Positions 4,474 to 53,833 of a stretch of 58,650 nt of DNA are shown here, in pieces; the first letter of the stretch is position 1; each line of letters starts with the position of its first letter. The stretch is from assembly GCA_016178075.1 (NCBI GenBank), contig JACOUA010000305.1:1-58650 (forward strand), read 5' to 3'. This DNA is from Acidobacteriota bacterium. GTDB lineage: Bacteria; Acidobacteriota; Vicinamibacteria; Vicinamibacterales; JACQTH01. Below the pieces are notes generated by a model that searched no databases, was not told the DNA's origin, and worked only from the letters and a program-made list of their open reading frames with translations. The position numbers were made by a program, and so were the translations under genes.

Positions 4474-7400
4474 CTACTTCCCGCTGACCGGCTCGAGGCC
4501 GAGACGTTTCAGCTCCACATTGAGCGCCGCCAGATCCTTGCCGAGCACCTGCTGCAGCCGATCGGTCTGGACCTTCAGCTCCGCCGTCACATCCTTGAAG
4601 ATCGGATACGCGTTGGCCGTCGGCTTTCCCTCTCCGGTCAACACGACTCGTAGGAGTGAAGCGACTCGGTTGTTGATCTTGATCGGGAAGTTGAGCGGAT
4701 CCTGGTTGCTCCGGTTCCGCACCTGGTAGATCTCTTCTTCGACCGCGCTCAGGTTCTTCGTCAGCCAGCCGGTGGCCTCTTTGAGGCGCGCGTCCGACGA
4801 TTTCGCGAGGCGATCGTTCGCCTGCTGCCTCACCCGCCGAATCTGGATGACGGCAGTGTTCGCCTCGCTGACCTTGTCGCGAATCTGCAGCGCCAGATCG
4901 AACTGCTCCTTCAGATCGGCGTCGCTGGCGGCGCGAAACGGATGCCTTTTCACGATCAGCGGCTGCGTCTGGGCACGGCCGTCCACGGTCAGCCGGACCT
5001 GGTAGGTGCCGGGCAGCGCCGTCGGACCGTTCGTGGTCGCGCCCCAGAGAATCATGCCGGGGAAGGTCGTCGCCCCTTCGTACTGGACGTCCCACGTGAA
5101 CCGGTTCAGGCCCGCCGCCATCGACGTGGTCGGGGGACCCCCACGGCCGCCACGACCGCCCTCTTCACCGCCCGCTGGTCCCGCCTCCGCCGCACCGGCC
5201 TGTCCCCGTGCGGATTCGGCGCGGCCGGCTGCGGGAGCGTCACCACGGCCCGCCCCACCGCCGCGACCACCGCGACCGCGCTCGCCGGCAGGAGCCGCGC
5301 CTTGAATCGATCGGACGACCTGGCCTTTGGCGTCGAGGATTTCCAGCGACAGCTTCTCCGCCGGCTTCTTCAGCAGATACGTAATGGTCGCGCCCCCGGC
5401 CGAGCGAATCGCGTCGCCCGGCGTGAACAGATAGAAATCGGACGCGGCGGTCACCGCCGGCCCGTACTGGCGCAGCGGCCCAACGCTATCGAGGATGTAA
5501 AAGCCGCGGCCGTGCGTCGCGATCGTGATGTCGTTTGCCTCGACCCAGATATCGGAGACCTGCGTGTCGGGCAGGTTCAGCGACATCGACTCCCAGCGAT
5601 CGCCATCGTTGTACGAGATGTAGAAGCCGTGCTGGGTGCCTGCGTACAGGAGGCCGCGCCGCACGCGATCCTCGCGCACGACGTGCACGTAGTCGCTTGC
5701 CGGGATTCCCGTGACGACCTTTGTCCACGTCTTCCCGAAGTCATGGGTGCGGAAGATGTAGGGCGCAAAATCATTGAGCAGCGGCTTCTTGACGGCAACG
5801 TAGGCCGCGCCCGGATCGAACGCCGACGCGTCGATCTGGCTCACGCGCCCCAGGTCCGGCATCTCCGTCGGCGTCACGTTGGTCCAGGTCTTCCCGCCAT
5901 CCCGCGTCACCTGCACCACGCCGTCGTCCGATCCCGCCCAGAGAACGTTGACGTCGGTCTTCCCGGGCCCGAGCGCGAAGACAGTCGCGTAGACCTCAGG
6001 GCTGTTCATGTCGTGCGTGATCGGCCCGCCCGACTCGCCGAGCGTCTTCGGATCGTGGCGGGTGAGATCCGGGCTGATCTTCTCCCAGCTCTGCCCACCG
6101 TTGGTTGTCTTCCACACGTGCTGCGACGAGGTGTAGAGGACGGTCGAATCGACCGGTGAAAAGATGATCGGGTAGGTCCACTGCCAGCGCTCGACCAGCG
6201 CGCTCGCGGGCTCACCGGAGAAGAAGCGCGGATACGCGCCAACCTCCCGCAGCTCCCCCGTGCGCCGATCGAGCCGCGTCAGAAATGTTCCGTTGTTCGC
6301 CCCGGAATAGAACACGTCGGGATTCCTCGGATCGGGCGCGATATACCCGGGCTCCCCGCCTCCAGCCGCATACGGCGGCACAGCGCCGCCTCGCCCACCC
6401 CCGCCACCACCGCCGCCGCGCCCGCCAAGGTTCGTGTCGCTCGAGACGCACATCGTCGAGTTGTCCTGCTGCGCGCCGCAGACGTGATACGGCACGTGCC
6501 TAGTCGTGATCACGTGATAGAACTGGCCCGTCGGATAATCCTCATCGGACCAGGTCCGCGCCCCGTTGGTCGAGACGGCACCGCCACCGTCGTTCCCCAG
6601 GACGAGATGCTGCGAGTCGTCCGGGTCGATCCACATGTCGTGGTGATCGCCGTGGGTTCCGTTCCCGACCTGCGCCAGCGTCTTCCCGCCATCGGTCGAC
6701 CTGAACGCGCTCGTGTTGAGGGCGTACACAGTGTCCTTGTTGTTGGGATCGGCGAACACGTGCGTGTAGTAGAAGGCGCGCTGACGAATGCTCCGCTCGC
6801 CGTTCACCAGCGTCCAGGTCGCGCCGGCATTGTCGGAGCTGAACAGCCCGCCATTCTCGTTCTCGATGAGCGCGAACACGCGATTCGGATCCGCGCCGGA
6901 GATCGAGACGCTGATCTTGCCAACCGGTCCCTGCGGCAGCCCGGTGCTTCGCGTGATCTCGGTCCAGGTCTCGCCCTCATCCGTCGATTTGAACAGCCCG
7001 CTGCCCGGGCCGCCGCTCGACATCTGGTATTCGATGCGGTACGCCTCCCATAACGCGGCGAACATCACGCTCGGGTTCTTTCGATCGATCGCGACGTCGA
7101 TGGCGGCCGTCTTGTTGTCGCGGAACAGGGTCCGCTTCCAGGTCTTCCCGCCGTCGGTGCTCTTGTAGAGCCCCCGCTCGTCGTTCGGCGCGCCGTATCG
7201 CCCGAACGCGGCGACGAATACAACGTTGGGGTTCGTCGGATGGATCCGGATCTTCGAGATGTTCTGGGCGTCCGCGAAGCCGACATGTGTCCAGGTCTTG
7301 CCGGCGTCCGCTGATTTGTACACGCCATCGCCCGGCATGATGTTGCCGCGGATGCACGATTCACCCGTGCCGATGAAGACGACGTCGGGGTTCGACTCCG

Positions 7401-8026: not shown

Positions 8027-8436
8027 GATTGAGACGGCGAGGGCGCCTGTGACTTCAGGATCTCGTCGATGAGGAACAGGTCCGTGAGGAGCGCGCGCAC
8101 GTGAATCGACGCGTTCAGGTTGTCGACGAGCTGCGAGCTGATACCCGGCTGCGCGAGGACGAGGTCGATCGAGGCGAGCGCGGCGCGGGCGTCGGCGTCC
8201 AGGACGCGCGCGAAGGCGTAATAGTGTTCGGCCGGCTTGAGCGCGTCCCGCTCGACGACGGCCGTCACGACCTCGCTCAGGCCGGTCAGCGCGGCGCGGC
8301 TCCGCCAGAGAAAGTCGCGGAGCTGCAAGCCGGTTGAACTGCCCTGGTCGGTGGGAAGGCCCTGGGCGGCGTAGGCGAGCATGAACTCGTAGCCTGCCTC
8401 GATGGTCTGGCAACGAGAGTCAAGCTCGCCTCTCAA
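8023..8436 (-). CDS. hypothetical protein (137 aa) co-transcribed with the Mo-hydroxylase/cytochrome b genes
   Basis: TTG start 4 nt after the cytochrome b stop. Composition is protein-like (IEAGYEFMLAYAAQG, VRALLTDLFLIDEILK). No family recognised. Confidence 0.5.
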   Translation of the reverse strand: MRGELDSRCQTIEAGYEFMLAYAAQGLPTDQGSSTGLQLRDFLWRSRAALTGLSEVVTAVVERDALKPAEHYYAFARVLDADARAALASIDLVLAQPGISSQLVDNLNASIHVRALLTDLFLIDEILKSQAPSPSQS

Positions 8437-8440: not shown

Positions 8441-9319
8441 TCAGACAGCGATTCGCCTCCCCTTGGCGGCGTCCTCGTCGGGGGGCGGCGGCGGCACCGG
8501 GCGCGCCACGTTCCACCGCTGCGGATCGTGGTGTTCGAGGTAGTGCCCCCGATCGATCCAGCCGAAGATCATCGAGTAGGTGATCCACAGCTTCTCCGGC
8601 CGGATTGCGAAGTAGACGTGGGCCATCACGAGCGCGACCAGACCGACACCGGCCAGGCCGTGCGCCACATACATCACGCCCCAGGCCTGATCGGTGAACA
8701 AGTACGGGTTGCGCGTGAAGAACGGCGTCTGCACCCGTTTCATCATGAAGACGCCGGTGCCGATGACGGCCAGCCCCGTGATCAGGATGATCAGGTGGTA
8801 CAGCTTGTTCTCGAGCGGGTACTTCCCGTGCTTGCGGGGTGCCGGGGCCGATTGTCCGACGCCGCGGAGCATCCGGCGACGCGAGTCTTCGATATCGCCC
8901 TTCTCCGGCCAGATGGACCAGAAGTCGAGCCAGAAGGTCGCGTGGACCGTGTGATAGATGATCGAAAGCGTCAGGATGACGCCGGCAATCCAGTGAATCG
9001 TCACCCACGCGAACTTCACGCCGACGATCGGCAGAAACGCGCTGAAGAGCAGCACGAACATCGCGGCCGCCATCACCCAGTGGAAGGCGCGCGCCGCGAC
9101 CGAGTGGCGCGCCACCCGCTCGGGAATCCGGGCCGCGAGTGCCGCCGTCGTAGCCGCGTCGCCCTTCTCGGGCACCGGTTGCGGCCAGAAGCGCACGTAG
9201 AGCGCGTGCCCGATCAGAAACAGCACGCCGCCGATCGCCGACAGGTACAGCAGGTCCCACGAGATCCGGATGAGGATGTCCTCACCCCACGGACTGCGTC
9301 CCCACTTTAGGAAGTCCAT
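8441..9319 (-). CDS. cytochrome b (Ni/Fe-hydrogenase/FdnI-type b-cytochrome family) membrane subunit
   Basis: 292 aa, about 5 TM helices with conserved His in TM segments (FHWVMA, IHWIAG, YHTVH, YVAHG, VMAHVY). GGAGGG RBS. The start overlaps the FAD-subunit stop by 13 nt. Confidence 0.8.
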   Translation of the reverse strand: MDFLKWGRSPWGEDILIRISWDLLYLSAIGGVLFLIGHALYVRFWPQPVPEKGDAATTAALAARIPERVARHSVAARAFHWVMAAAMFVLLFSAFLPIVGVKFAWVTIHWIAGVILTLSIIYHTVHATFWLDFWSIWPEKGDIEDSRRRMLRGVGQSAPAPRKHGKYPLENKLYHLIILITGLAVIGTGVFMMKRVQTPFFTRNPYLFTDQAWGVMYVAHGLAGVGLVALVMAHVYFAIRPEKLWITYSMIFGWIDRGHYLEHHDPQRWNVARPVPPPPPDEDAAKGRRIAV

Positions 9320-14744: not shown

Positions 14745-16424
14745 TCACCTGGTCAAGCGCCTGTACTTGATGCGGTGCGGCTGATCGGCGGCCACGCCGA
14801 GCCGGCGGTGGCGGTCGGCTTCGTACTCCTGGTAGTTCCCTTCGAACCAGACCACCGAGCTGTCACCCTCGAACGCCAGGATGTGTGTGGCGATCCGATC
14901 GAGAAACCAGCGGTCGTGGGTGATGATGATCGCGCACCCGGCAAACGACAGGACGGCTTCCTCGAGCGCTCTGAGCGTGTCGACGTCGAGGTCGTTGGTG
15001 GGCTCGTCGAGGAGCAGCAGGTTCGCCCCGCCCTTCAGCAGCTTGGCGAGATGGACTCGGTTCCGCTCGCCCCCCGAGAGGGTGCCGACCTTGCGCTGTT
15101 GAGCGGCGCCCTTGAAGTTGAACCACGAGACATACGCGCGCGACGCCACCGTCCGTTTGCCGAGCGCGATCTCGTCCTTGCCGCCACCGGAGATCTCCTC
15201 CCAAACGGTGTGGTCCGCGACGAGCGCATCGCGCGTCTGATCGACGTACCCCATCTTCACCGTCTCTCCCACGCGCAGCTCCCCTGTATCGCAGGGCTCA
15301 TGTCCGACCATCATCCTGACGAGCGTGGTCTTGCCCGCGCCGTTCGGGCCGATCACCCCGACGATGCCCCCGCGTGGAAGCGTGAAGCTCATGTCGTCGA
15401 TCAGGAGGAGATCGCCGTACGCCTTGCGCACGTGACGGGCCTCCACGACGACGTCGCCAAGACGCGGGCCGGGAGCGATATAAATCTCGGCTGTGTCGAT
15501 CCGGCCCGCACCGTCCTCGCTCAAGAGCGCGTCGTACGCGTTGAGCCTGGCTTTTCCCTTCGCGTGTCGCGCGCGGGGCGACATCCGGATCCATTCCAGC
15601 TCGCGGTCGAGCGTGCGGTGGCGCTTCGATTCCTGCTTCTCCTCGAGCGCCAGCCGTTGCTGCTTCTGGTCGAGCCACGACGAGTAGTTCCCCTGCCACG
15701 GATAGGCGACGCCGCGATCGAGCTCCAGAATCCAGCCGGCGACGTTGTCGAGAAAGTACCGATCGTGCGTCACGGCGACGACGGTGCCGGGATACTCTTT
15801 CAGGTAGCGCTCGAGCCAGGCGACCGACTCCGCGTCGAGATGGTTCGTCGGCTCGTCGAGCAAGAGGAGATCCGGCGATCGGAGCAACAGCCGGCAGAGC
15901 GCGACCCGCCGGCGCTCACCGCCCGAGAGCGTCTCGACCGCAGCATCGGGCGGCGGCAGACGCAGCGCGTCCATGGCCATCTCCAGCCGAGCGTCGAGAT
16001 CCCAGGCGTTGAACGCATCGATCCGATCCTGGACGCGGCCTTGTTCTTGCAGCACGATCTCCATTTCGTCGGGCGAGAGCTCGTCGGCAAAGCGCGCGTT
16101 GATCTCGTCGAAGCGATTGAGCAGCGCGCGGAGTTCCGCCACGCCTTCCTCGACGTTGCCAAGCACGTCTTTCGAGGGATCGAGACGCGGCTCCTGCGGC
16201 AGGTATCCGATACTGATCCCCTCGGCCGGAAAGGCTTCGCCGAGGAAGTCGGTGTCCTGGCCGGCCATGATGCGAAGCAGGCTGCTCTTGCCGGACCCGT
16301 TGGCGCCGATCACGCCGATCTTCGCGCCCGGCAGGAACGACAGCCAGATATCCTTGAAGACGAGCTGGTCGGGCTGAAACACCTTGCCCAACCCCTTCAT
16401 CGTGTAGATGTATTGGTGGGACAT
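14745..16424 (-). CDS. ettA: energy-dependent translational throttle protein EttA (ABC-F ATPase)
   Basis: 559 aa. N-terminus [44 protein letters not shown] is collinear with E. coli EttA. Two ABC cassettes are present ([22 protein letters not shown]). Confidence 0.95.
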
Positions 16425-17067
16425 GAAAGAAGCTCTCAGCTCTCAGCTCTCAGCTCTCAGCTTGGTCCTGGCCTCGGTGCTGATTCCGGAGACGCTTGTC
16501 TCCGCCGATCAGTCTGACCGGCTCCGTCGTCTGGCGATCGACCCGTCGTCCAGCCAGATCACGATTCAGGTGGGCCGATCGGGGGTCTTCGGATTCGCCG
16601 GCCACGATCACGAAGTCGTGGGTCCGATCGGCTCCGGCGAAATCGCCCTCGATTCGAGCAACCTGGCGCGGTCGAGCGTCACGTTGACCATCGCGACGCG
16701 TTCGCTGAAGGTCACCGGCAAGGGTGAACCCAAAAAAGACGTGCCGGCGGTGCAGGACGCGATGGAGCGCGACGTGCTGGATGTGGCGCGACATCCGACG
16801 ATCCGGTTCGAGTCGCGGCAGGTGAAGGTCACGTCGCCGTCCGAATCGACGCCGGCGCTTGCCATTACAGGAGACCTGACGCTAGGCGGCGTCACGCGCC
16901 CCATCACCGTTCCCGCTCAGGTTCGTCTCGACGGGCGCTCGCTGACCGCCACCGGCACGGTCTCGATCAAGCAGACCGAGTTCGGGATCAAACCGGTGAG
17001 CGCCGTGGGCGGCACGGTCAAGGTGAGGGACGAGCTGCGGATCACGTTCAGGATCAGCGCGCGATAG
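16423..17067 (+). CDS. YceI family periplasmic protein
   Basis: [30 protein letters not shown] are YceI hallmarks. Only the ATG at 16423 yields a signal peptide ([28 protein letters not shown]). That ATG shares CATG with the divergent ettA start, so the start is uncertain. Confidence 0.75.
16431..16463. repeat. heptamer tandem array (AGCTCTC)x4.7; GCTGAGA on the ettA sense strand
   Basis: Direct reading gives agctctc agctctc agctctc agctctc agctt. It lies 6 nt from the ettA ATG and inside the putative yceI signal-peptide codons. Confidence 0.95.
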
Positions 17068-18928: not shown

Positions 18929-18931
18929 TTT

Positions 18932-18977
18932 GCTATCAGCTATCAGCTTTCAGCTTTCAGCTATCAGCTTTCAGCTA
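18932..18977. repeat. heptamer tandem array (GCTWTCA)x6.5; GCTGAWA on the ABC-exporter sense strand
   Basis: gctatca gctatca gctttca gctttca gctatca gctttca gcta. The array ends 3 nt from the exporter ATG (18928). Confidence 0.95.
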
Positions 18978-19125
18978 GAGCTTCCATCTTCAGTTCACGT
19001 TTCCATATCAGGATCTCCCTTAATCGTATCAGCTTCGGCCCGCTGTCTTGAGCCGCTGATAAACTGACACGAGGCGCAGCGGTTCGGAGAGCTGAAAGGT
19101 GAGAGTCTGAGAAACAATGCCCGAG

Positions 19126-19187
19126 ATCACCACAGAGCGCACAGAGAACAATAGGATTCTCTCCGTGGTCTTCGTGGGCTCCGTGGT
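19126..19187. repeat. CACAGAG-type imperfect hairpin upstream of dinB
   Basis: ATCACCACAGAGCGCACAGAGAA-caatagg-ATTCTCTCCGTGGTCTTCGTGGGCTCCGTGGT, followed by a T7 run at 19196..19202. Confidence 0.8.
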
Positions 19188-19230
19188 AAAGCGGGTTTTT
19201 TTCACAAGCTCTGACAGCTGAGGGCTTCCC

Positions 19231-25938: not shown

Positions 25939-28101
25939 TCAACGACGGAGCAACCCCCTGTGGTTGCCCTCTCGCGTTCCTTTCCACAATACGATCAGGC
26001 CGGCGATCATGATTGCGGTACCGAAGGTCGTGAGGCGCCAGGACGGCATCTCCGATCCGCCAAGCCCCAACGCCTCGGCGATCCACCGCTCGTGGACAAT
26101 CGTCGCGATGAACGCGTTGTTCACCGCATGTGCCGTCATGCTGGCGAAGATCGAGCCGCTGCGCCACGCGAGCACGCCGAGCATCGCGCCGAGGAACACG
26201 GTCGGCAGCAGTCGGTAGATTGAGGCGTGCGCGACGCCAAACAGGAGCGCGGTGACGCCGACCGCCGCGGCTGGACCGAATCGTCGCAGCCCCGACATCA
26301 CCAGACCGCGGAAGAACAACTCCTCGCAGACCGCCGGCATCACGCCGATCAGCAGCCAGATGAGCCACAGCGGAAGCGGTTGATCCTTGAAGAGCACCAG
26401 GCGCTCCAGCGCGCGAACATATTCCTCCGGCGGTGGGAGCAGCCTCATGAGGACGCCGGTGGCGAACGTCCAGGACGAGAGTCCCAGCAGAATCGCGGCG
26501 ACGACACCCGCCAGCGCGGGACGTTTGACCAGCAGCGTCTCGCGCGGCGCGTAGCCAAGTCCGAACACGACTAGCGCGCCCGGTAGGAGAAAAAACCCGA
26601 GCTCGGTGGCCACCAGCGTCGTGATCGTCCCCGCCTGCTGCAGCAGCAAGCTCCCGTAGAAGGCCGACACCAGCGCGACCGCGAATGTCACGAGGGACAC
26701 CGCCGCCGACGGCAGCCGGCCGGGCCGGCGATCGAGGCCGAGCAGCGTCCGCCACGGCTCTCGTCCGCCCAGCAGAAGCTGCTCGTGCTCGAAGACGCTC
26801 GCCGCGAAGGTGACCGCGAGCGCCGCATAAGTGAAGGCCGAGACGAGCGTTAGGAACACCAGATCCGGCGGCGCCTCGTGCAGAAGGAGCGCCTTGATGA
26901 GAAGCGCAATGTTGATGACCGGCACGAACGCGGTCCACGCGTTCAGCTGGACTCCGGGCACCATCGTGACACCGGCTGGGAGCGCCAGCAGCATGTACAC
27001 AGGCATCAGGAAGTTCTGCCCGTCCTTGAAGTCTTTCGCCATCGCCGCGACGGCGAGAAACACCGCCGTGACGATGAAGGTCACCGGCACGAGCATGACG
27101 AACGCCAGCAGGTACGTGGACGGCCCGATCGTGACGGTGCCCGGCATGATCCGGCCCAGCGCGGCGGCGAGGCTGACGATATTGGCGAGCGCGGCGATGA
27201 GCCCAATGATCCAGACCGCGATGAACTTACCGGTGATGATTTCCGCCGATCCGATCGGCGCGCACAGCAGCGTCTGCATCGTGCCGCGCTCTTTCTCCCC
27301 GGCCGTCATGTCGATGGCCGGATAGAGTCCGCCGAGCAGCGACATGGCGATCAGCATGAACGGCAGGAACGTCCCAAGCGCCTGCCCCGTCCGCCGCTGC
27401 CGAGGGGCGACATTGGTCGCGTCCGCGCGGAGCGCGACCGAGAAGCCTTCATCCAGCCCACGCGCGCGCTGCCGTTGAAGGACGACGTCGCGGCGGAAGG
27501 TTTCGAGCGCGCGCCCGACACGCTGCCGCGCGAGCGTGGAGTTCTGATTCACCGAATCGAAGTACATCGACGCGCGACCCATCCGCCCCGCCTGCAGGGC
27601 GGCTTCGAGCCCTGGCCACAGGACGAGGATCGCATCGGCTCGACGCCGCAGTAACGCGTCACGGGCCGCCTGCGTCACGAGATCGTCGGGCTCGGTCTCC
27701 GCCCGACCGGCCTCGGTCGGGCGCGACTCTGCGGGGCGCGCCCCGCTCTCGCGCTCCGGCTGCGCGGGCGGCTCGGGAGTTTCTGAGGGAGGGACAATCG
27801 AGCCTTGATCGAACCGCCGGCGCAGATCCGGCGAGATCTCGGCCCAGGCGACCGGCTCGATGGTGCGATCAGCCTTCAGCGCGTCCACCAGTCGCGCGGG
27901 CGCCGCTCCCCACACCGCGACCGTCGACGCCCGCTCCTCGCGGGCTTCACGCTGCGATTCCTGCAGTTTGCCGAGACCGATGAACAGCAGCGGATACACC
28001 AGGACCGGCAGCCCGACCATCATCAGCAGCGTGCGCCGGTCGCGCAGCGTCTCCCGGATCTCCTTGCGGACGATGGTCAGGACGATGGAGGGTCTGAGCA
28101 T
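25939..28101 (-). CDS. ABC-2 (NatB-like) permease fused to a CPBP (CAAX/Abi) intramembrane protease domain
   Basis: N-terminus MLRPSIVLTIVRKEIRETLRDRRTLL is typical of NatB-type permeases. The C-terminal domain has CPBP motifs CEELFFRG, FGVAH and HAVNN. ATG 28101 preferred over track start 28149. Confidence 0.85.
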   Translation of the reverse strand: MLRPSIVLTIVRKEIRETLRDRRTLLMMVGLPVLVYPLLFIGLGKLQESQREAREERASTVAVWGAAPARLVDALKADRTIEPVAWAEISPDLRRRFDQGSIVPPSETPEPPAQPERESGARPAESRPTEAGRAETEPDDLVTQAARDALLRRRADAILVLWPGLEAALQAGRMGRASMYFDSVNQNSTLARQRVGRALETFRRDVVLQRQRARGLDEGFSVALRADATNVAPRQRRTGQALGTFLPFMLIAMSLLGGLYPAIDMTAGEKERGTMQTLLCAPIGSAEIITGKFIAVWIIGLIAALANIVSLAAALGRIMPGTVTIGPSTYLLAFVMLVPVTFIVTAVFLAVAAMAKDFKDGQNFLMPVYMLLALPAGVTMVPGVQLNAWTAFVPVINIALLIKALLLHEAPPDLVFLTLVSAFTYAALAVTFAASVFEHEQLLLGGREPWRTLLGLDRRPGRLPSAAVSLVTFAVALVSAFYGSLLLQQAGTITTLVATELGFFLLPGALVVFGLGYAPRETLLVKRPALAGVVAAILLGLSSWTFATGVLMRLLPPPEEYVRALERLVLFKDQPLPLWLIWLLIGVMPAVCEELFFRGLVMSGLRRFGPAAAVGVTALLFGVAHASIYRLLPTVFLGAMLGVLAWRSGSIFASMTAHAVNNAFIATIVHERWIAEALGLGGSEMPSWRLTTFGTAIMIAGLIVLWKGTREGNHRGLLRR

Positions 28102-28858
28102 GAATCGCCTTAGGATTCGGGATTCGGGATTCTTGCCCCTCCCTCGCATAGAGCAAGAACGTATCCGTCAGGTTACTGCGGCGCGAGCGCGCGAGAAGCT
28201 CCGACAGCGTGCCGGCATCGATGACGCGCCCGCGATGCAGCAGCACGATGCGGTCGCAGAGATACTCGGCTTCCCCCATCACATGCGTCGAAAACAGGAT
28301 CGTGCGGCCGGCCCCGCGCTCGCGGCGAATGGCTTGGACGATGAACTGGCCGCTCATCACGTCGAGCGCGGCCGTGGGCTCGTCGAGAATCAGCAGATCC
28401 GGTTCGTGCAAGAACGCGCGCGCGATGTTCGCGCGCTGTTTCTGCCCGGACGACAGCGAGCCGCAGGGGCGATCCAGGAACTCCTCCATCTCGAGCTCGC
28501 GCGCCAACTGGCCGACGCGTCGCGCGATCGCCTCGTCACCCATCACGTGCAGGCGGCCGAAGTACCAGAGCATCTCTCGCGACGAAAGACGCTGGTACAG
28601 TCGCGTGTCGCCCGACAGAAACCCCATGCGCCGCTTCGCGGCGATGCGCTGGCGAATCACGTCGACATCCCCGAGTCTCACCTCGCCCGCATCTGGCTCG
28701 AGGATCCCCGCCACCATCCGGAGCGTGGTCGTTTTGCCGGCGCCGTTCGGACCCAGGAGCCCGACGACCTCCCCCGGGTTGACGGCAAAGCTCACCTCAT
28801 CGACCGCGGTGATGCCGCCAAATCGCTTCACGAGACCCGTCGCGACGAGGGAGGGCAT
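27947..28858 (-). CDS. ABC transporter ATP-binding protein (NatA-like) with an out-of-frame-looking 3' extension
   Basis: Walker [10 protein letters not shown], signature LSSGQKQR, Walker B LLILDEPT. Homology ends near ..TDTFLLYAREG. The last ~50 codons run through a heptamer array and overlap the permease gene by 155 nt. Confidence 0.85.
   Translation of the reverse strand: MPSLVATGLVKRFGGITAVDEVSFAVNPGEVVGLLGPNGAGKTTTLRMVAGILEPDAGEVRLGDVDVIRQRIAAKRRMGFLSGDTRLYQRLSSREMLWYFGRLHVMGDEAIARRVGQLARELEMEEFLDRPCGSLSSGQKQRANIARAFLHEPDLLILDEPTAALDVMSGQFIVQAIRRERGAGRTILFSTHVMGEAEYLCDRIVLLHRGRVIDAGTLSELLARSRRSNLTDTFLLYAREGQESRIPNPKAIHAQTLHRPDHRPQGDPGDAARPAHAADDGRAAGPGVSAAVHRSRQTAGIAA
28112..28132. repeat. 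heptamer array (GGGATTC)x3 at the ABC ATPase/permease junction
   Basis: aggattc gggattc gggattc. On the sense strand this reads GAATCCC GAATCCC GAATCCT-AAGGCGATTC-ATG(permease). Confidence 0.95.
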
Positions 28859-28876
28859 GCCGGCGATTCTAAATCA

Positions 28877-28919
28877 AGCTCTCAGCTCTCAGCTATCAGC
28901 TCTCAGCTCTGCTCTCAGC
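28877..28919. repeat. heptamer tandem array (AGCTMTC)x6; GCTGAGA on the ABC-ATPase sense strand
   Basis: agctctc agctctc agctatc agctctc agctct gctctc agc. The array lies 18 nt from the ATPase ATG (28858). Confidence 0.95.
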
Positions 28920-29001
28920 GCACAGTTTCGTCTAAGATCGAAGTGGAGATCATCGTCGCGAGTCACCGCGGCGAGCGAGAGCGACCCGCCTCCGCTCTTC
29001 G

Positions 29002-29066
29002 AGCTTCCGCCTTCGCTGAAGCTACGGCGGACCGCCGAAGCCTTGGCGGAGGCTGGTCGGCGGGCA
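29002..29066. repeat. REP-like long palindromic element (CGGCGGACCGCCG centre)
   Basis: AGCTTCCGCCTTCGCTGAAGCTACGGCGGACCGCCGAAGCCTTGGCGGAGGCTGGTCGGCGG. About 85% identical by eye to the reverse complement of 35083..35148. Confidence 0.8.
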
Positions 29067-29084
29067 AGGCCGCTTGTCCGCCGT

Positions 29085-29142
29085 AGCCGTGGCGAAGGCG
29101 GATGGCAGGTCGTGGGGGTGGGGCCCCACGACAAACCCAAGA
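29085..29142 (+). repeat. leader-element copy directly upstream of the lhr start (plus strand)
   Basis: The plus strand reads GCCGTGGCGAAGGCGGATGGCAGG-GTCGTGGGG-GTGGGG-CCCCACGAC-AAACCCAAGA-ATG(29143). The core is more diverged, but the stem is perfect. Confidence 0.75.
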
Positions 29143-32100
29143 ATGACGAAGCCGGACGCCGCGCTGCACCTGTTTCATCCGGTCGTGCGCCAGTGGTTCG
29201 TCGACACGTTCGGCCGCCCGACGGCCGCGCAGGCGCAGGGCTGGCCAGCCATCGCGCGCGGGGAGTCGGTGCTGATCCTCGCGCCGACCGGCAGCGGCAA
29301 GACCCTCGCCGCCTTTCTCTGGTGCATCGAGCGGCTGATGTTCCAGCCCGTGCCGCCGCGAGGTGAACGCTGTCGGGTGCTGTACATCTCGCCGCTCAAA
29401 GCGCTCGCGGTCGACGTCGACAGGAACTTGCGCGCGCCGATCGCCGGCATCACGCAGGCCGCAGCCCTGCGCCAGGCTCAGGGCGCCCGGAGCTCGTCGA
29501 GGGACGAGGCGCTCGCCCAGGCCTTGTCGGTGCCGACCGTCGGGGTCCGATCCGGCGACACCCCCGCGACCGAGCGCGCGCGGTTTCAGCGCGACCCGAC
29601 CGACATCCTGATCACGACACCGGAGTCGTTCTACCTTCTGCTCACCTCCAACGCGCGCGAGGCGCTGCGCTCGATCGACACCGTCATCGTGGATGAAATC
29701 CACGCCCTGGTCCCGACCAAGCGTGGGGCCCACCTCGCCCTGTCGATCGAGCGGCTCGAGGCGCTCGCCGGCCGGCCGCTGCAGCGCATCGGCCTCTCGG
29801 CCACGCAACGCCCGCTCGACGAGGTGGCGCGCTTCCTGGGCGGCGTCGAATCGTGGCGTCCGGTATCAGCCGGAAGATCCTCGGCCAAGGGATCCTTCCG
29901 CCCGACGTCGGAACTCACGAAGACGATCGAGCGCGCAGCGGCCGCCCTCGAACACGATTTTGGCGATGCGGTCGCCAACGTCCGTTACCGACCCGTCACG
30001 ATCGTCGATGCGGGCTCCCGCAAGCCGCTCGAGCTCCTCGTCGAAGTGCCGGTCGAGGACATGGCGCGGTTGGGCGGCGAGGTGCGGCCGCCGATCGCTC
30101 CGCCGAGGGGCGCCCCGTCGACGTCCATCTGGTCGGCGGTTCACCCTCGGCTCGTGGACCTGATTCGTGCGCATCGATCGACGCTCATCTTCGTGAACAA
30201 CCGCCGGACGGCGGAGCGACTCGCAGCGGCGATTAACGAACAGGCCGCCGAGCCGCTCGCGCGCGCGCATCACGGCTCGCTGGCGCCGGCCCAACGATCG
30301 GAGATCGAGGAGGCCCTCAAAGGCGGCACGCTCCGCGCGCTGGTGGCGACCTCGTCGCTCGAGCTGGGGATTGACATGGGGGCGATCGATCTGGTGATCC
30401 AGATCGAAGCACCCCCGTCGGTGGCGAGCGGGTTGCAGCGCATCGGGCGGGCCGGCCATCGGATCGACGCGCCGAGCCGGGGGGTGATTTTTCCGAAGTT
30501 CCGCGCCGATCTCCTGGCCTGCGCGACGGCCACCCGCGCGATGCACGCGGGGCTGGTGGAGTCGTCGATCTATCCCCGCAACCCGCTCGACATCCTCGCC
30601 CAGCAGGTCGTGGCGATGGCGGCCATGGATCGCTGGCCGATCGACGAGCTGTTCGATCGCGTGCGGCGCGCCGCCCCGTTCGCCACCTTGAGCCGGGCGA
30701 TCTTCGAGAGCGTGCTCGACATGCTGGCCGGACGCTACGCCTCGGACGAGTTCGCCGATCTCAAGCCGCGGCTGACTTGGGACCGCATCCGCCAGACTAT
30801 CGTCGCGCGCGAGGGCGCGCGCCGTGTCGCCGTCGCCAACGCCGGCACGATCCCCGATCGCGGTCTCTACGGCGTCTTCCTCACACGCGGGTCGGAAGGG
30901 GCCCGGGCCGTGCGCGTCGGCGAGCTGGACGAGGAAATGGTCTTCGAGACCAAGGCCGGCGAGACGTTCGTCCTCGGCGCCTCCACGTGGCGCGTCGATG
31001 AGATCACGCACGACCGCGTGCTGGTGTCGCCCGCGCCCGGCGAGCCGGGCAAGATGCCGTTCTGGCGGGGCGACGCTGCCGGCCGCCCCATCGAGTTCGG
31101 CCGGCTGATTGGCACGCTCGTGCGCGAGCTGCTGCAGATGCCACCCGGTGCGGCGGTGAGGCGATTGGTCAAAGAGCATGACCTGGACGAGCGGGCTGCG
31201 GAAAACCTCGTTCGCTACCTCAAGGACCAGACGATCGCCACGGGCGCGGTGCCGAGCGACGACACGATCGTGATCGAGCGCTGCCGCGACGAGCTGGGGG
31301 ACTGGCGCGTCTGCGTCCTCACCCCCTTCGGCAGCCAGATCCACGCGCCGTGGTCGATGGCCGCGGTCGCGCAGTTCAAGGACCGCCGCGATGTCGATGC
31401 CGAGGCCATGTGGACGAACGACGGGTTCGTGCTGCGGGTGCCGGAGACCGACGAGGCCCCTGACGCCTCGCTCGTGCTGCCCGCGGCGAACGACCTCGAG
31501 GCGCTCGTCATTCGACGGCTCGGAGCCTCGTCGCTCCTCGCGGCGAAGTTCCGCGAGGCCGCCGCCCGCGCCCTCCTCCTGCCGAAGCGGCGGCCCGGCG
31601 GCCGCACGCCATTGTGGCAGCAACGAAGACGCGCGTCGGATCTGCTGGCAGCCACGTCGCGGTTCCCCTCGTTCCCCATCGTGCTCGAGGCGTACCGGGA
31701 ATGTCTGCGGGACGTGTTCGACATTCCGGCGCTTCGTGACACGCTTCAGCGCATTGCCGACGAATCGGTGAAGGTCGTCACCGTCACGTCGGATAAACCG
31801 TCACCCTTTGCGTCCGCGCTTCTGTTTGGGTACGTCGCGAAGTACATCTACGAAGGCGATGCGCCGCTCGCCGAGCGCCGCGCACAGGCGCTGACCATCG
31901 ACCAGGCACAGCTCCGAGAGCTCCTTGGCGACGCCGATCTCCGTGACCTGCTCGACGCGGACGCGACCGTCCAGGTGGAGCGCGAGCTCCAGTCGCTGGC
32001 TGCCGGCTATCGTGTCCGAACCGCCGACGGCGTGCACGACCTGCTGCTGCGTCTGGGGCACCTCAGTCTCGACGAGCTCGACGAGCGAACGGAGGGGCTT

Positions 32101-33936
32101 GCGCTGGCGAGCGCGCTCGACGAGCTCTCCCGAGCCTCGCGCGTCATCGGGCTGACGATGCCAGGGGCCACGGGCAAGACGCATGGGGCAGGTTCCGGAG
32201 CAGTCAGCTACATCGCCTCTGAAGACACGAGCCGCTATCGCGACGCGCTCGGGATCACGCCGCCGACCGGCGTACCGGACGCGTTCCTGCAGCCCGTCGC
32301 CGATCCGCTGCGCGACATCCTCCTCCGATTTGCCCGCACGCATGGGCCATTCGGGTTGGACGAGGTGATCGAACGGCTCGGGATCGGTCGTTCGGGCGCG
32401 AGCCGGCGAGCGATCGAAGCGGTGCTCCACGATCTGGTTGAATCCGGACGTCTTCTGGAGGGTGAATTCCGAGCGAGCCGAACGGGACGAGAGTGGTGTC
32501 ACACCGACGTGCTCAGGCTCGTCCGCCGACGCTCACTGGCCCGAATCCGGCGCGAGGTCGAGCCGGTCGCGCCATGTGTGCTCGGACGGCTGGTGACAAC
32601 GTGGCAAGGAGTGACGCAGCCACGACACGGGGCTGATGCGCTGCTCGACGCGGTGCACAGTCTTCAAGGATCGGCCGTGCCTGCCTCGGTGCTGGAGTCC
32701 GAGATTCTACCGGCGCGAGTCGAGGGCTACACCCCGTCAGATCTCGACGCGCTCGCGGCGGCCGGTGAGGTTGTCTGGTGCGGTGTCGAGCCGCTCGGCG
32801 ATCGTGATGGACGGGTCACGCTGTATCTGGCCGATCACGTTGAAACGCTGCGGCGTCGCTCCGAGCAGTCCGCGCCGGCATCGGATCGTGACGCGCGGAT
32901 TGTCCGAGCGCTAGAGCGACAAGGCGCGTCCTTCTTCGGCGACCTCCACCATGCATGCGGCGGCGGATTCCCCGCTGAGACGGTCGCGGCGCTCTGGCGT
33001 CTCGTTTGGAACGGTTTCGTGACGAATGACACCTTCCACGCTCTGCGCGCCTTCGTCCAGGGCGAGGCCCGCCCACGACACCGGCGATCCTCCCGCGACC
33101 CCGGCGCACCGAGCGTCACCTCGCGCCGCGCGATCCCGCCGGCGGCCGAAGGTCGATGGTCCCTCATCGGCGCTCGAGCGGCCGCCGCGAGCATCACGGC
33201 GACCGAATGGAGCGCCGCCACCGCGGCGCAGCTTTTGACCCGCTACGGGCTGGTGACACGAGAGGTCGCCGCGGCCGAAGGCCTGCCGGGTGGCTTCTCC
33301 GCCATCTACGACGTCCTCCGGCGCATGGAGGAGCGCGGGCGCGCGCGCCGCGGATACTTCGTCGAAGGCATCGCAGCCGTGCAGTTCGGGCTTCCCGCAG
33401 CCGTCGATCTTCTTCGCTCCCTCCGTCCCTTGCCGGATCAGCCGGAGGTGGCGGTCCTGGCGGCAACCGATCCCGCCAACCCATACGGAACGTTCCTGAA
33501 GTGGCCCGCGCCGGACTCAGGCGATCCATCGTCTGGACCGAGCTTCGCGCGGGCCACCGGCGCCAGCGTCATGCTCGTCAACGGCGCGCTCGCCGCATAC
33601 TCGAGGCGAACCAACCCGCAGCTCTGGACCTTCCTGCCGGAGGGCGAGCCCGAACGCACCACGACGGCGAGAGCGATCGCGTCGCGGCTTGCGGAGCTTG
33701 CCAGATCCGCCGAGGGAGGCGTGCTGATTTCGGCGATCAACGGCGCACCGGCCCCGGGGCATCCGCTGGCGCCATTTCTCCGGGCGGCCGGCTTCGTCGC
33801 CTCCGCGCTCGGCTACCACATCCCGCGCGGAACAGCCCTCCGGCTGATGAGGCCTGGACGGCGAGCGCCGAAGCTTCAAAGTTCTCCGTTCGCAGCGCTC
33901 AGAAGGCAGCCCGAGGAACCAGAGACCGACAGCTAG
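29143..33936 (+). CDS. lhr: ATP-dependent helicase Lhr (large helicase-related, long form with C-terminal domain)
   Basis: FHPVVRQWF..AQAQGWPAI..LILAPTGSGKTLAAFL, VDEIH, and SSLELGIDMG..QIGRAGH helicase motifs, followed by a roughly 700-aa C-terminal extension. ATG 29143 chosen because the track start 29074 lies in repeats. Confidence 0.9.
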   Translation: MTKPDAALHLFHPVVRQWFVDTFGRPTAAQAQGWPAIARGESVLILAPTGSGKTLAAFLWCIERLMFQPVPPRGERCRVLYISPLKALAVDVDRNLRAPIAGITQAAALRQAQGARSSSRDEALAQALSVPTVGVRSGDTPATERARFQRDPTDILITTPESFYLLLTSNAREALRSIDTVIVDEIHALVPTKRGAHLALSIERLEALAGRPLQRIGLSATQRPLDEVARFLGGVESWRPVSAGRSSAKGSFRPTSELTKTIERAAAALEHDFGDAVANVRYRPVTIVDAGSRKPLELLVEVPVEDMARLGGEVRPPIAPPRGAPSTSIWSAVHPRLVDLIRAHRSTLIFVNNRRTAERLAAAINEQAAEPLARAHHGSLAPAQRSEIEEALKGGTLRALVATSSLELGIDMGAIDLVIQIEAPPSVASGLQRIGRAGHRIDAPSRGVIFPKFRADLLACATATRAMHAGLVESSIYPRNPLDILAQQVVAMAAMDRWPIDELFDRVRRAAPFATLSRAIFESVLDMLAGRYASDEFADLKPRLTWDRIRQTIVAREGARRVAVANAGTIPDRGLYGVFLTRGSEGARAVRVGELDEEMVFETKAGETFVLGASTWRVDEITHDRVLVSPAPGEPGKMPFWRGDAAGRPIEFGRLIGTLVRELLQMPPGAAVRRLVKEHDLDERAAENLVRYLKDQTIATGAVPSDDTIVIERCRDELGDWRVCVLTPFGSQIHAPWSMAAVAQFKDRRDVDAEAMWTNDGFVLRVPETDEAPDASLVLPAANDLEALVIRRLGASSLLAAKFREAAARALLLPKRRPGGRTPLWQQRRRASDLLAATSRFPSFPIVLEAYRECLRDVFDIPALRDTLQRIADESVKVVTVTSDKPSPFASALLFGYVAKYIYEGDAPLAERRAQALTIDQAQLRELLGDADLRDLLDADATVQVERELQSLAAGYRVRTADGVHDLLLRLGHLSLDELDERTEGLALASALDELSRASRVIGLTMPGATGKTHGAGSGAVSYIASEDTSRYRDALGITPPTGVPDAFLQPVADPLRDILLRFARTHGPFGLDEVIERLGIGRSGASRRAIEAVLHDLVESGRLLEGEFRASRTGREWCHTDVLRLVRRRSLARIRREVEPVAPCVLGRLVTTWQGVTQPRHGADALLDAVHSLQGSAVPASVLESEILPARVEGYTPSDLDALAAAGEVVWCGVEPLGDRDGRVTLYLADHVETLRRRSEQSAPASDRDARIVRALERQGASFFGDLHHACGGGFPAETVAALWRLVWNGFVTNDTFHALRAFVQGEARPRHRRSSRDPGAPSVTSRRAIPPAAEGRWSLIGARAAAASITATEWSAATAAQLLTRYGLVTREVAAAEGLPGGFSAIYDVLRRMEERGRARRGYFVEGIAAVQFGLPAAVDLLRSLRPLPDQPEVAVLAATDPANPYGTFLKWPAPDSGDPSSGPSFARATGASVMLVNGALAAYSRRTNPQLWTFLPEGEPERTTTARAIASRLAELARSAEGGVLISAINGAPAPGHPLAPFLRAAGFVASALGYHIPRGTALRLMRPGRRAPKLQSSPFAALRRQPEEPETDS

Positions 33937-35036
33937 TCGCGTCCTTTATCCTTGACCCGTGCGCTGAGCGCCTTGGTCGCGCTCTTCCACCGTCGCTTCC
34001 GATCCAACCGCGCGAACTCGTCCGTCCGCGCCTCGAGCACCACCGCCTCGCGCTGCAGCTTGTGATAGTTCTCCAGCCGTTCGGCTGACAGCCGCCCATC
34101 CTCTGCTGCCTGCTTGACGGCGCATCGCGGCTCGTCGAGATGCCGGCAGTCCGCGAAGTGACAATCGACTGCCAGCGTGTCGATGTCGTCGAAGCGGTCG
34201 CGGACAACGGCCTGGTCCACGTCCCACAGCTGCAGCTCCCGCATCCCCGGCGTATCGATAATCAGGCCGCCCGCCGGGAGGACGATGAGCTCGCGATGGA
34301 TGGTGGTGTGGCGTCCGCGCTGGTCCCGCGGCCGGACCTCGCCGGTGCGAAGCCGGTTCTCGCCGAGAAGCGCGTTGATCAGCGTCGACTTCCCGACGCC
34401 CGACGATCCGAGGAGCGCGACGGTCTGCCCTTCGCGCAGGTACTGTCTGACGGCGTCCAGCCCCTCACGCCGCCTTGGGCTGAGGGCATGAACGGGCACG
34501 TGCGGCGCCAGTCGCTCGACTTCGCGGATCCGATCCGAGACATCGTCAGGGAAGAGATCCGCCTTCGTGAGCAGAATCGTCGGCGTGGCGCCGCTCTCCC
34601 AGGCGAGAACGAGCGCCCGCTCGATGCGGCGAAGGTTGAAATTGCGGTCGAGGCCCGTGACCAGAAACACGCGATCGATGTTGGCGGCGACGATCTGCTC
34701 TTCGGTCAGGGCCCCCGCGACCTTTCGCGAAAAACGGCTCTTGCGCGGGAGGATGGCGACAATGGTCGCTCGGCGGCGATCGCCTTCGACCGTCCGGATG
34801 GCGACCCAGTCGCCGACGGCGGGGAGCTCGTGGCGGCCGACGGCCTGATGTTTCAGCCGGCCGGCGGCCTCGGCGCGCGCCTCGCCGCTCGCGGTGTAGA
34901 CGCGGTAGATGTAGTTGAACTCGATGGCGATCCGGCCGGGGACGAGCCCCTCCGCGGCGAACGGCGCGAAGGCTTCGGCAAAAAACGGGGTCCAGCCGAG
35001 CTTTCCGAGCTTTCGATTGGTGTCGGCGTGCGCCAT
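33933..35036 (-). CDS. rsgA: ribosome small-subunit-dependent GTPase A
   Basis: Circularly permuted GTPase: NIDRVFLV, GSSGVGKSTLINALL, DTPGMREL, and zinc finger CHFADCRHLDEPRCAV. Confidence 0.9.
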   Translation of the reverse strand: MAHADTNRKLGKLGWTPFFAEAFAPFAAEGLVPGRIAIEFNYIYRVYTASGEARAEAAGRLKHQAVGRHELPAVGDWVAIRTVEGDRRRATIVAILPRKSRFSRKVAGALTEEQIVAANIDRVFLVTGLDRNFNLRRIERALVLAWESGATPTILLTKADLFPDDVSDRIREVERLAPHVPVHALSPRRREGLDAVRQYLREGQTVALLGSSGVGKSTLINALLGENRLRTGEVRPRDQRGRHTTIHRELIVLPAGGLIIDTPGMRELQLWDVDQAVVRDRFDDIDTLAVDCHFADCRHLDEPRCAVKQAAEDGRLSAERLENYHKLQREAVVLEARTDEFARLDRKRRWKSATKALSARVKDKGRD

Positions 35037-35082
35037 CGGGATGTTACCGCGCGCGGCGGACGGGCGCGCCCTTAGCCGGAAG

Positions 35083-35148
35083 ACTTCCGCCTGACCGCCT
35101 CCGCCAAGCCTACGGCGGTCCGCCGAAGCTTTATGCGAAGGCGAAAGC
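35083..35148. repeat. REP-like long palindromic element (second copy)
   Basis: The reverse complement reads AGCTTTCGCCTTCGCATAAAGCTTCGGCGGACCGCCGTAGGCTTGGCGGAGGCGGTCAGGCGG. It lies in the rsgA/glnN divergent region. Confidence 0.8.
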
Positions 35149-35208
35149 TACGATAGAATGTTTGCGACCACGATCGACAACCTTCCTTCTCGCACGCTGA
35201 AAAACATT

Positions 35209-37395: not shown

Positions 37396-37590
37396 GCGCC
37401 GCGCCCACCTTCGTGCCCCTCGAGTACGCGCCGTGCTCGGCCGTCGAGACCAGGCAAAGGGCCCGCGACTGCGATCTGGAGCTGCGGCGCCGGCGGACAG
37501 TGCGGCAGTTCTCCGATCGTCCCGTGCCGCGCGAGGCGATCGAAGACTGCCTCCGGGCGGCCGGCACGGCCCCGAGCGGCGCGAACCTGC
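37392..37590 (+). pseudogene. nitroreductase family gene, 5' fragment only
   Basis: GTG overlaps the glnN stop (GTGA). [41 protein letters not shown] is a nitroreductase N-terminus. Homology stops where QPW is expected, exactly at a GGGAYTC heptamer array. Confidence 0.6.
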
Positions 37591-37591
37591 C

Positions 37592-37612
37592 GGGACTCGG
37601 GATTCGGGTTTC
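37592..37612. repeat. heptamer array (GGGAYTC-like)x3 at the nitroreductase-remnant/M28 peptidase junction
   Basis: gggactc gggattc gggtttc. It begins at the codon where nitroreductase homology ends. Confidence 0.9.
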
Positions 37613-37614
37613 GC

Positions 37615-39030: not shown

Positions 39031-39047
39031 GACCGGCGATGGCCTGT

Positions 39048-40934: not shown

Positions 40935-40955
40935 CGGCTTGTGAGTCTACCCCAA

Positions 40956-41073
40956 CAGGGATCAGGGACCAGGGATCAGGGACCAGGAAAAGGGCACAGG
41001 GTCTCGAAGTGCCGGCCCCTGACCCCTGATCCCTGATCCCCGATCCTGATGAGGGATCGGGCTCGGGGATCGA
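40956..41073. repeat. inverted pair of heptamer arrays (CAGGGAY x4.5 / YCCCTGA x5) forming a ~100-nt palindrome, plus nested hairpins
   Basis: Left arm 40956..40987 (cagggat cagggac cagggat cagggac cagg). Central GGCAC..GTGCC hairpin. Right arm 41016..41049 (cccctga cccctga tccctga tccccga tcctga), followed by CCCGATCC/GGATCGGG. The region lies between the divergent kup and tlpA-like genes. Confidence 0.9.
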
Positions 41074-41160
41074 CAAAGGCCGATGCCGCGTCGAACGGCA
41101 CCTTTCGTTGACCTGCAGGTCGGCCGCCGGGCTATGATGTCGGCTGCAGCCGAGCCATCC

Positions 41161-44101: not shown

Positions 44102-44122
44102 GAGTTCTCAGCTTTCAGCTTG
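44102..44122. repeat. short heptamer array (2-3 units of AGCTYTC) abutting the SpoIIE-phosphatase start
   Basis: gagttctc agctttc agcttgg. On the sense strand this reads CCAAGCTGAAAGCTGAGAACTC-ATG(44101). Confidence 0.8.
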
Positions 44123-53774: not shown

Positions 53775-53833
53775 AAGGATCCCCTTCTTGCGGGGCGGCG
53801 TGAGTGCGCCGACATTATATAATCCCGGGCCAA

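Follow-up and report, generated by a model that had tools for sequence, protein, structure and literature searches.

Heptanucleotide repeat arrays set against start codons in an Acidobacteriota genome: candidate length-variable mRNA leaders

Tandem arrays of a 7-nt unit, GCTGA(G/A/T)A, stand directly in front of four genes in the stretch of DNA considered here (the window), which comprises 58,650 nt of contig JACOUA010000305.1 from an Acidobacteriota bacterium of the Vicinamibacterales (assembly GCA_016178075.1). All four lie on the minus strand in divergent intergenic regions. A (GCTGAGA)x4.6 array at 16431-16463, composed entirely of perfect GCTGAGA units, ends 6 nt (TCTTTC) 5' of the ettA ATG at 16424-16422. 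At 18932-18977, a (GCTGAWA)x6.6 array leaves 3 nt (AAA) before the ATG of an ABC exporter (18928-18926), and at 28877-28919 about six GCTGAGA/GCTGATA units, one of them truncated, end 18 nt 5' of the ATG of an ABC ATPase (28858). The fourth array, AAGCTGAAAGCTGAGA, has about 2.3 units at 44106-44121 and is 4 nt (ACTC) from the ATG of a SpoIIE/HAMP phosphatase (44101). In each case the purine-rich, UGA-bearing strand is the sense strand and runs directly up to the start, despite 200-300 nt of free space in these intergenic regions. A first-pass annotation, made from the letters of the window alone, had described four such minus-strand arrays in divergent regions, ending 3-20 nt upstream of start codons; on re-measurement the gaps span 3-18 nt and the fourth array takes the coordinates given above. 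The gene names it proposed (ettA, ABC exporter, ABC ATPase and SpoIIE phosphatase) agree with the Pfam assignments in the window, which are EttA, a fused ABC exporter, DinB, an ABC ATPase, a HAMP-SpoIIE phosphatase and YceI. The starts are credible, as the EttA N-terminus is canonical and orthologues of the ABC exporter align from residues 1-5. The same annotation gave the exporter array 6.5 units, an AAA gap and no Shine-Dalgarno (SD) sequence, and this description holds: the array has 6.6 units, and none of the SD cores GGAG, GAGG and AGGA occurs between array and ATG at any of the four window leaders.

The exporter array is the left arm of an outward-facing pair. Its inverted right arm is a degenerate plus-strand array, GCTGAAA GGTGAGA GTCTGAGA, at 19091-19112; the spacer is 113 nt and the arms are 79-88% complementary. 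This fifth array had been placed just ahead of a 34-codon open reading frame (ORF) upstream of dinB. The array is present, but the ORF is probably a repetitive extragenic palindrome (REP)-like element rather than a gene, because it overlaps a hairpin (CACAGAG...CTCTGTG, 19125-19202, followed by a T-run of seven) that has a second copy at 57228-57295, just past the stop of the gene at 53804-57217. Both copies of the hairpin read GAGATCACAGAGC[G/C]CACAGAGAA...TTCTCT[C/T]GTG...GGGCTC[C/T]GTGG. A degenerate plus-strand remnant, GCTCTGA CAGCTGA GGGCT, lies at 19208-19226, 4 nt 5' of the dinB ATG (19231). Across the window, a two-unit pattern allowing at most one mismatch has 14 matches against 0.14 expected, a count reached in none of 100 shuffles. 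The head-to-tail copies exceed chance, as in long simple sequence repeats (LSSRs), with Tandem Repeats Finder returning 4.6-6.6 copies.

Do these arrays change in length between strains? The window is matched by groundwater metagenome contigs, and in three runs (X1-X3) the match is approximately 99.8% identical. Logan contigs of the three runs were compared with the window over 27900-44400 (16.5 kb). In every X1-X3 contig the SpoIIE array carries exactly one extra TCAGCTT unit behind 44107, together with a unit-variant substitution (44114 T>C), and its flanks show about six differences in 2.6 kb. A second array at 28113-28132, (GAATCCC)x2.9 on the minus strand and also written (GGATTCG)x2.9, gains one GGATTCG behind 28112 in run X2. 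Six indels are listed in the 16.5-kb stretch with arrays versus none in a further 14.25 kb without arrays. The unit differences scored are those at these two short arrays, as the Logan contigs break at the three long ones (16431, 18932 and 28877). An exact-flank scan of JGI metagenome contigs for length variants of the long arrays gave no match, and exact-protein look-ups with four window proteins found no other contigs. The arrays are therefore gained and lost in whole 7-nt units, as strand slippage would do. Of the three roles put forward in the first-pass annotation (ribosome standby or enhancer sequence, site for a binding protein, slippage-prone spacer), it is the proneness to slippage that these data bear out.

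The array at 28113-28132 also shows what such changes can do to a reading frame. It lies at the 3' end of the ABC-ATPase ORF, just 5' of the ATG of a permease (28101). In the window this ORF (27947-28858, 303 aa) continues past the array and covers 150 nt of the permease gene in a different frame. The additional X2 unit brings it to a TAA 9 nt before the permease ATG, at 251 aa, and loss of one unit would fuse the two genes. The copy number of this array thus sets the predicted stop position of the ATPase. The first-pass remark that a change in copy number within coding sequence shifts the frame, since 7 is not a multiple of 3, is accordingly correct, although at an array other than those for which it was made.

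How abundant is the family? In the metagenome runs the k-mer depth of the 16431 array is approximately 100-fold that of its flanks, and depth over the 28877 array is 365-595 compared to 12.7 in the flanks; this genome or community therefore harbours the family in strongly amplified form. There are four or five sets of GCTGARA-type arrays in 58 kb, and the unit is found once (locus L022) in 80 Vicinamibacteria-like loci. The best exporter orthologues, at 68-75% protein identity, come from metagenome-assembled genomes (MAGs) of Vicinamibacterales and other Acidobacteriota. Within 694 kb of related loci, arrays of at least three copies number 66 at period 7, 18 at period 6, and 7 each at periods 8 and 9, so that heptamer arrays outnumber those of 8- or 9-mers about ninefold. 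When the same loci and the window (752 kb, 83% coding) were divided with a gene call based on GC at third codon positions (GC3), 59 of 71 period-7 arrays (approximately 83%) were intergenic and 12 fell in coding sequence (CDS), versus 3 intergenic and 16 in CDS for period 6. Heptamer units in the lineage are very diverse and inverted pairs are frequent. Many arrays begin 0-5 nt past a stop codon or occupy the entire stop-to-start spacer. Composition alone does not account for the recurrence of units: identical units occur in 5 pairs within a locus (0.42 expected, maximum 4) and in 13 pairs between loci (1.46 expected, maximum 7) over 2000 composition-preserving shuffles. A stop codon is present in the sense-strand unit at 13 of 37 start-proximal arrays and in the antisense unit at 5 of 37. 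The lineage appears to be SD-poor, as an SD 4-mer core precedes 23% of 522 predicted starts, whose positions are approximate, versus 12% in a control region. The window arrays occupy the usual SD site in a lineage that seems to use few SDs.

The repeats extend well beyond this lineage. An exact scan for (GCTGADA)x4, with one genome per species, returned at least 120 contigs, and the counts in this and later paragraphs concern the matches listed. These include Acidobacteriota, Cyanobacteria (Moorena, Trichodesmium and Microcoleus), Chitinophagales, Verrucomicrobiota, Planctomycetota, Gemmatimonadota, Chloroflexota, Vibrio and others. In the sense direction, 30 of 126 testable arrays have the start codon of an ORF of 100 aa or more within 40 nt; in the antisense direction 13 of 125 do. 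When only ATG starts of such ORFs within 8 nt are counted, 11 are sense and 1 is antisense. About half of the acidobacterial matches adjoin an ATG.

Many arrays form the 3' arm of a palindrome, 5'-(NNTCAGC)n-spacer-(GCTGANN)n-3'. At least two TCAGC units in 7-nt register lie within 150 nt upstream of 43 of 145 arrays (approximately 30%), and downstream of 3. Each arrangement is its own reverse complement, which rules out a detection artefact as the source of the 43:3 polarity; nor can a strand-symmetric mutational process yield it. The UGA-bearing strand therefore reads outward to the flanking gene on both sides. The usual layout on a single strand is a stop codon, the TCAGC arm, a loop, the GCTGA arm, an optional SD and an ATG, and pairs with short spacers fold at -48 to -55 kcal/mol. 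Both inverted pairs in the window, 18932/19091 and 40956/41017, obey the TCAG...CTGA rule. The latter occupies the divergent region between kup and a redoxin gene. Its left arm, at 40956-40987, is (ATCCCTG/GTCCCTG)x4.6 on the minus strand, also written (CAGGGAY)4.6, and runs in the sense direction of kup (start 40934); its right arm, (CCCTGAT)x5 at 41017-41050 on the plus strand, does the same for the redoxin gene (41083). The 29-nt arms are 86% complementary and 30 nt apart, and RNA 41005-41102 has a folding energy of -50.7 kcal/mol (z -4.6). The other three GCTGARA arrays of the window are solo, with remnants of at most one unit opposite. Among solo arrays in general the orientation bias is weak, at 14 versus 9 at starts and 22 versus 15 at ends.

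Which known repeats do these resemble? Judged by unit and period, they are long heptanucleotide repeats of a (T/G/A)AGCTGA family related to TAACTGA. TAACTGA direct repeats occur in marine Beggiatoaceae and also in cyanobacteria and Bacteroidetes, where they are mostly forward, end one to a few nucleotides before a start that has no ribosome-binding site, and are of unknown function (MacGregor 2015, PMC4679880). TAGCTGA, a rotation of GCTGATA, figures in Table 3 of that paper as a one-base variant that the genome studied there does not carry in repeated form. In both systems 7-nt units stand in tandem, 2-6 times or more, mostly between genes, and are distributed patchily across phyla (PMC4679880); TAACTGA repeats form many sets per genome, and four or five sets lie in the 58 kb of the window. 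They also share the forward orientation toward a start, a gap of a few nucleotides, the absence of a recognisable ribosome-binding site, and stops in all frames forward with none in reverse. They differ in host, which is an Acidobacteriota here, and in the unit, as TAGCTGA, GAGCTGA and AAGCTGA each depart from TAACTGA at one or two positions. TAACTGA repeats are predicted to be unstructured, whereas the arrays here can pair with themselves via AGCU. One inverted repeat was found among 170 TAACTGA sets, whereas outward-facing inverted pairs are common here, and the strain-level unit polymorphism is likewise a feature of the present arrays.

Contiguous heptamers have also been described in Nostoc PCC 7120, with TTCAAAA at recF and GACYAAT at recO and some reporter evidence of regulation (bioRxiv 10.1101/2022.06.06.494920). 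They too lie near starts (within 100 nt) or overlap them at many genes, in 3-8 copies, with a suspected regulatory role. Units and phylum differ, and in Nostoc some reporter evidence shows altered regulation on deletion. According to PMC4679880, the survey of Mrazek et al. (2007) defined LSSRs by units of 5-11 nt and found heptanucleotides to be commonest in most prokaryotic genomes, probably through slippage. The dominance of period 7, the intergenic location and the slippage origin are shared with that class as summarised there. It is, in the same summary, a descriptive class without a rule of position or orientation, and Acidobacteria are not among the repeat-rich genomes it lists. In Haemophilus influenzae, more 7-bp repeats upstream of hmw1A give less expression (PMC8262952). 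Like those of hmw1A and hmw2A, the present arrays are 7-bp tandem repeats between regulatory DNA and a start, with strain-variable copy number. The hmw repeats, however, comprise 15-25 or more units in an adhesin promoter region and have a demonstrated inverse effect on transcription, whereas the arrays here comprise 2-7 units and adjoin the ATGs of housekeeping genes in a free-living host. The TTTTGAT heptads of ctxAB are an example of a contingency-type repeat. The genes that follow the window arrays (ettA, an ABC exporter, an ABC ATPase and a SpoIIE-type phosphatase) are not of the surface, host-interaction or restriction types associated with contingency loci. REP elements and bacterial interspersed mosaic elements (BIMEs) are similarly intergenic, of high copy number, able to form hairpins when paired, and often found just past stops. 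REPs are unique palindromes of 20-40 nt, whereas the arrays are tandem 7-mers for which no link to a REP-associated tyrosine transposase (RAYT) was seen, and the true REP-like elements of the window (28967-29142 and 19125-19195) are distinct from the arrays.

Why would a bacterium keep such repeats against its start codons? The reading that we tentatively favour, while regarding it as far from assured, is that the arrays are repeats of the mRNA leader that act without SD pairing, close all three frames ahead of the start, vary in length, and tune expression through their copy number. In the transcript they would form the final 20-50 nt of the 5' leader and exert their effect in cis. With a unit length that 3 does not divide, a run of three units would put a UGA into each of the three frames immediately ahead of the AUG, insulating the true start from upstream translation. 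The C-poor, purine-rich repeat could serve as a ribosome-contact (standby) region without anti-SD pairing; S1, a cold-shock protein or another protein that binds single-stranded RNA may mediate this. As units are added or removed, leader length would change and expression would be tuned rather than switched. Together with an inverted TCAGC-type array further upstream, where there is one, the array may fold into a long hairpin ending at the ribosome-binding site.

In favour of this reading stand the excess of array patterns in the window, their sense placement 3-18 nt from four confirmed ATGs that lack an SD, the SD-poor lineage, the dominance and intergenic location of heptamers, the whole-unit polymorphism, the sense bias across phyla, the excess of sense-strand stops, the outward polarity, the reuse of units, the retention of arrays in three species pairs and the TAACTGA parallel. 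Several observations weigh against it. No RNA-seq run containing the locus was found, and the leader position of the arrays is a prediction. The predicted leaders are no less structured than shuffled sequences, and that of the exporter is more so (z -2.4). A single sequence-specific binding protein is disfavoured, because many unrelated units behave alike. The sense placement at starts described in the first-pass annotation stands in the window (four of four) and is echoed by the 11-to-1 count elsewhere, yet it is only part of the pattern, since only about 25% of GCTGADA arrays over all phyla adjoin a start and a similar share adjoins the stop of an opposite-strand gene. Conservation is also poor. 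Only 1 of approximately 50 exporter orthologues carries an array, as do only 6 of 52 Holophagaceae orthologues of the gene at locus L147, all six from one Geothrix subclade. Within this subclade the units drift through GCTGATA, GCTGACA, GCCGATA and GCCGACA, the last of which has no UGA, and copy number rises from 5 to 11 between close relatives. In the cultured Geothrix fermentans DSM 14018, a (GCTGACA/GCTGATA) array precedes the orthologue at locus L216. An intact GGAG persists 3' of the Holophagaceae arrays, which sit 5' of it, so arrays need not replace an SD.

On these comparisons the arrays appear clade-limited and fast-drifting at orthologous sites, and the idea of a strongly conserved element was rejected on the same counts. 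In three species pairs, two cyanobacterial and one from the Holophagae, both members retain (GCTGATA)4-5 ahead of the same ATG, and the DNA further upstream can hardly be aligned. Such retention, like the recurrence of units and the excess of sense-strand stops, speaks for some selective or sequence-specific process. Given the 6 of 52 in the wider sample and the drifting units, these pairs reflect recent common ancestry. Most of the approximately 50 exporter orthologues carry, in place of an array, a GGAAC-N16-CGTA motif about 20 nt before the ATG that resembles a promoter for an extracytoplasmic function (ECF) sigma factor. This leader is shared at loci L001, L006, L012, L016, L027, L028, L030 and L048, where the conserved segment lies approximately 20-70 nt upstream of the exporter ATG (at about 4001), and the same array-less loci share an upstream GATTATGTCATGGCC box. 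The window exporter leader contains neither the GGAAC-N16-CGTA motif nor the GATTATGTCATGGCC box.

Could the arrays simply be tolerated junk? Slippage would expand them in intergenic spacers wherever selection allows, with no effect on the downstream gene, and the patterns would reflect only the purging of harmful configurations, such as arrays in CDS, stop-free antisense arrays that extend ORFs, and C-rich leaders that load Rho. We consider this possible and nearly as likely as the leader reading. Heptamers are the commonest class of long simple sequence repeat in most prokaryotes, with polymerase slippage proposed as the source (Mrazek et al. 2007, as related in PMC4679880), and unrelated units share one orthologous intergenic region just past the exporter stop in more than 11 species. 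The rapid gain, loss, unit drift and copy-number change, the arrays that fill intergenic regions from stop to start, and the weak orientation bias of solo arrays all fit as well. Junk does not, however, readily explain why units recur within and between genomes far above composition-matched expectation, why (GCTGADA)x4 is spread over so many contigs and phyla, or why the nearest ATGs are almost all on the sense side. The palindrome polarity is impossible for strand-symmetric mutation, and in the window all four arrays adjoin starts with ample room to lie elsewhere. A further reading, which we regard as unlikely, takes the (N)AGCTGA and TAACTGA arrays as one ancient cross-phylum cis-element read by a conserved component of translation or RNA surveillance with a footprint of about 7 nt. 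Candidate readers could be the OB folds of S1, cold-shock-domain proteins, or Rho via the C-rich antisense strand; the arrays could then act as directional markers of gene boundaries, the GCUGA strand always reading toward the adjacent gene, with hypermutable copy number setting the strength of a start defined without an SD.

Two further roles are less likely than either the leader reading or tolerated junk. The arrays might act at the DNA level, as direct-repeat operators or promoter spacers in which unit number sets promoter geometry, giving contingency-type phase variation. We think this improbable, although the intergenic regions of all four window arrays are divergent, strains vary in copy number, hmw1A expression falls with more 7-bp repeats (PMC8262952), and deletion of the Nostoc heptamers altered the action of NtcA and LexA on the recO promoter (bioRxiv 10.1101/2022.06.06.494920). 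A promoter and terminator scan found no sigma-70-like promoters and no terminators at the window arrays. Moreover, arrays that fill same-strand stop-to-start spacers leave no room for a promoter, the genes encode no surface antigens and are of housekeeping types (ettA, ABC transporters), an ATG only 1-8 nt away fits translation better than transcription, and the diversity of units disfavours a single regulator. Nor is it probable, and slightly less so in our estimation, that the hairpin is the functional unit, with paired arrays acting as RNA stem-loops or DNA cruciforms in the manner of REP-like stabilisers, RNase III sites or terminators, and solo arrays as their decayed halves. The share of arrays with an inverted partner within 150 nt, the stability of the folded pairs, their typical position between stop and ATG, the two pairs in the window and the inverted pairs of other lineage units would all be accounted for. 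Three of the four window arrays nevertheless have no partner, the arms of the 18932/19091 pair, 113 nt apart, are unpaired in the minimum-energy fold, no T-run follows the 3' arm, and the whole window has no Rfam match at the gathering threshold.

Narrower ideas were also set aside. An unstructured leader that keeps the start open is contradicted by the exporter leader, whose excess structure arises from AGCU self-pairing, while the other leaders are unremarkable. An SD mimic is excluded, as GCUGANA contains no GGAG, GAGG or AGGA and has no complementarity to the anti-SD core. Only UGAU(CC) of the CCCTGAT family complements GGAUCA just 5' of that core, in the general bacterial 16S rRNA sequence that we presume for the host, where it may differ. 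A stop in all frames holds for GCTGANA, CCCTGAT and TAACTGA; it is not a universal feature, given sense stops in only 13 of 37 start-proximal arrays and the lack of a stop in GCCGACA. Rho polarity, with C-rich units after stops and G-rich units before starts, has the right direction over solo arrays but is weak (36 versus 24), and lineage heptamer arrays past stops are G-rich on the sense strand, contrary to it. Paired arrays are not miniature inverted-repeat transposable elements (MITEs), as their spacers are short and unconserved.

Start-adjacent heptamers have been known from sulfur bacteria and cyanobacteria with their mechanism unsolved, and the window adds the Acidobacteriota, a dominant, little-studied phylum of soil and groundwater. 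Any mechanism must accommodate a related unit across phyla, the outward polarity of pairs, whole-unit differences between strains and fast turnover at orthologous sites. Of these, the polarity of pairs and the unit differences between strains are constraints that are both new and testable. Should translation efficiency indeed be set by the arrays, housekeeping genes in free-living bacteria would possess a mutable expression dial, and not just the antigens of pathogens. There are practical consequences as well: arrays break short-read assemblies, can shift stop codons, as at the ATPase/permease junction, and can produce false ORFs or N-terminal extensions in annotation.

The array in front of ettA raises such a question of annotation on the opposite strand, as 16431-16463 falls within the longest plus-strand yceI ORF. 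In the region 16408-16480, one palindrome, CATG, provides both the ettA start (CAT 16422-16424) and a possible start of yceI (ATG 16423-16425). From ATG 16423, yceI would read the antisense array as part of a plausible signal peptide ending before DQ, and a unit change in the array would frameshift it. TTG 16462 and GTG 16476 are alternative yceI starts.

Other repeats in the window and its relatives deserve brief mention. A plus-strand (CGGGATT)x3.3 array at 37591-37613, of the same family as that at 28113, lies between a truncated nitroreductase-like fragment and an M28 peptidase gene. The fragment, an N-terminal piece in frame 3 of 37398-37630, loses sense exactly at this array; it looks like a gene remnant with the array at the junction, and the peptidase, with its signal peptide, probably starts at GTG 37630. 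In the kup/redoxin region, 41048-41071 is a second pairing partner of the CCCTGAT right arm, and all three groundwater runs have one nucleotide inserted behind 40987. Run X2 carries clusters of substitutions (about 20 per 100 nt) at 41621-41719 and 52019-52103 in otherwise near-identical contigs, a pattern suggestive of tracts recombined among strains that occur together. A GC-rich palindromic element (…GCTTCCGCCTTCGCTGAAGCTACGGCGGACCGCCGAAGCC…) occurs at 28967-29142 and at approximately 35075-35150, with a further high-depth bin at 53444-53919; its words reach a depth of about 3600 in the metagenome runs compared to about 13 in the flanks, and it is a very high-copy REP/MITE-like repeat. The long lhr ORF is annotated from a 5' end (29074) that this element overlaps, so that lhr probably starts further downstream. 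At 57338-57371, a direct repeat with a 17-nt unit, (GGGCTTCAGCCGGACCA)x2, ends 5 nt before the ATG at 57377 and contains a TTCAGCC motif resembling the antisense heptamer unit. Finally, (GCTGGTG)n arrays at 5798-5828, 8082-8106 and 9008-9031 of locus L033 occupy three intergenic regions of one MAG, so that one genome can reuse one unit at several sites; they include the exact Escherichia coli Chi octamer, GCTGGTGG, probably by coincidence.

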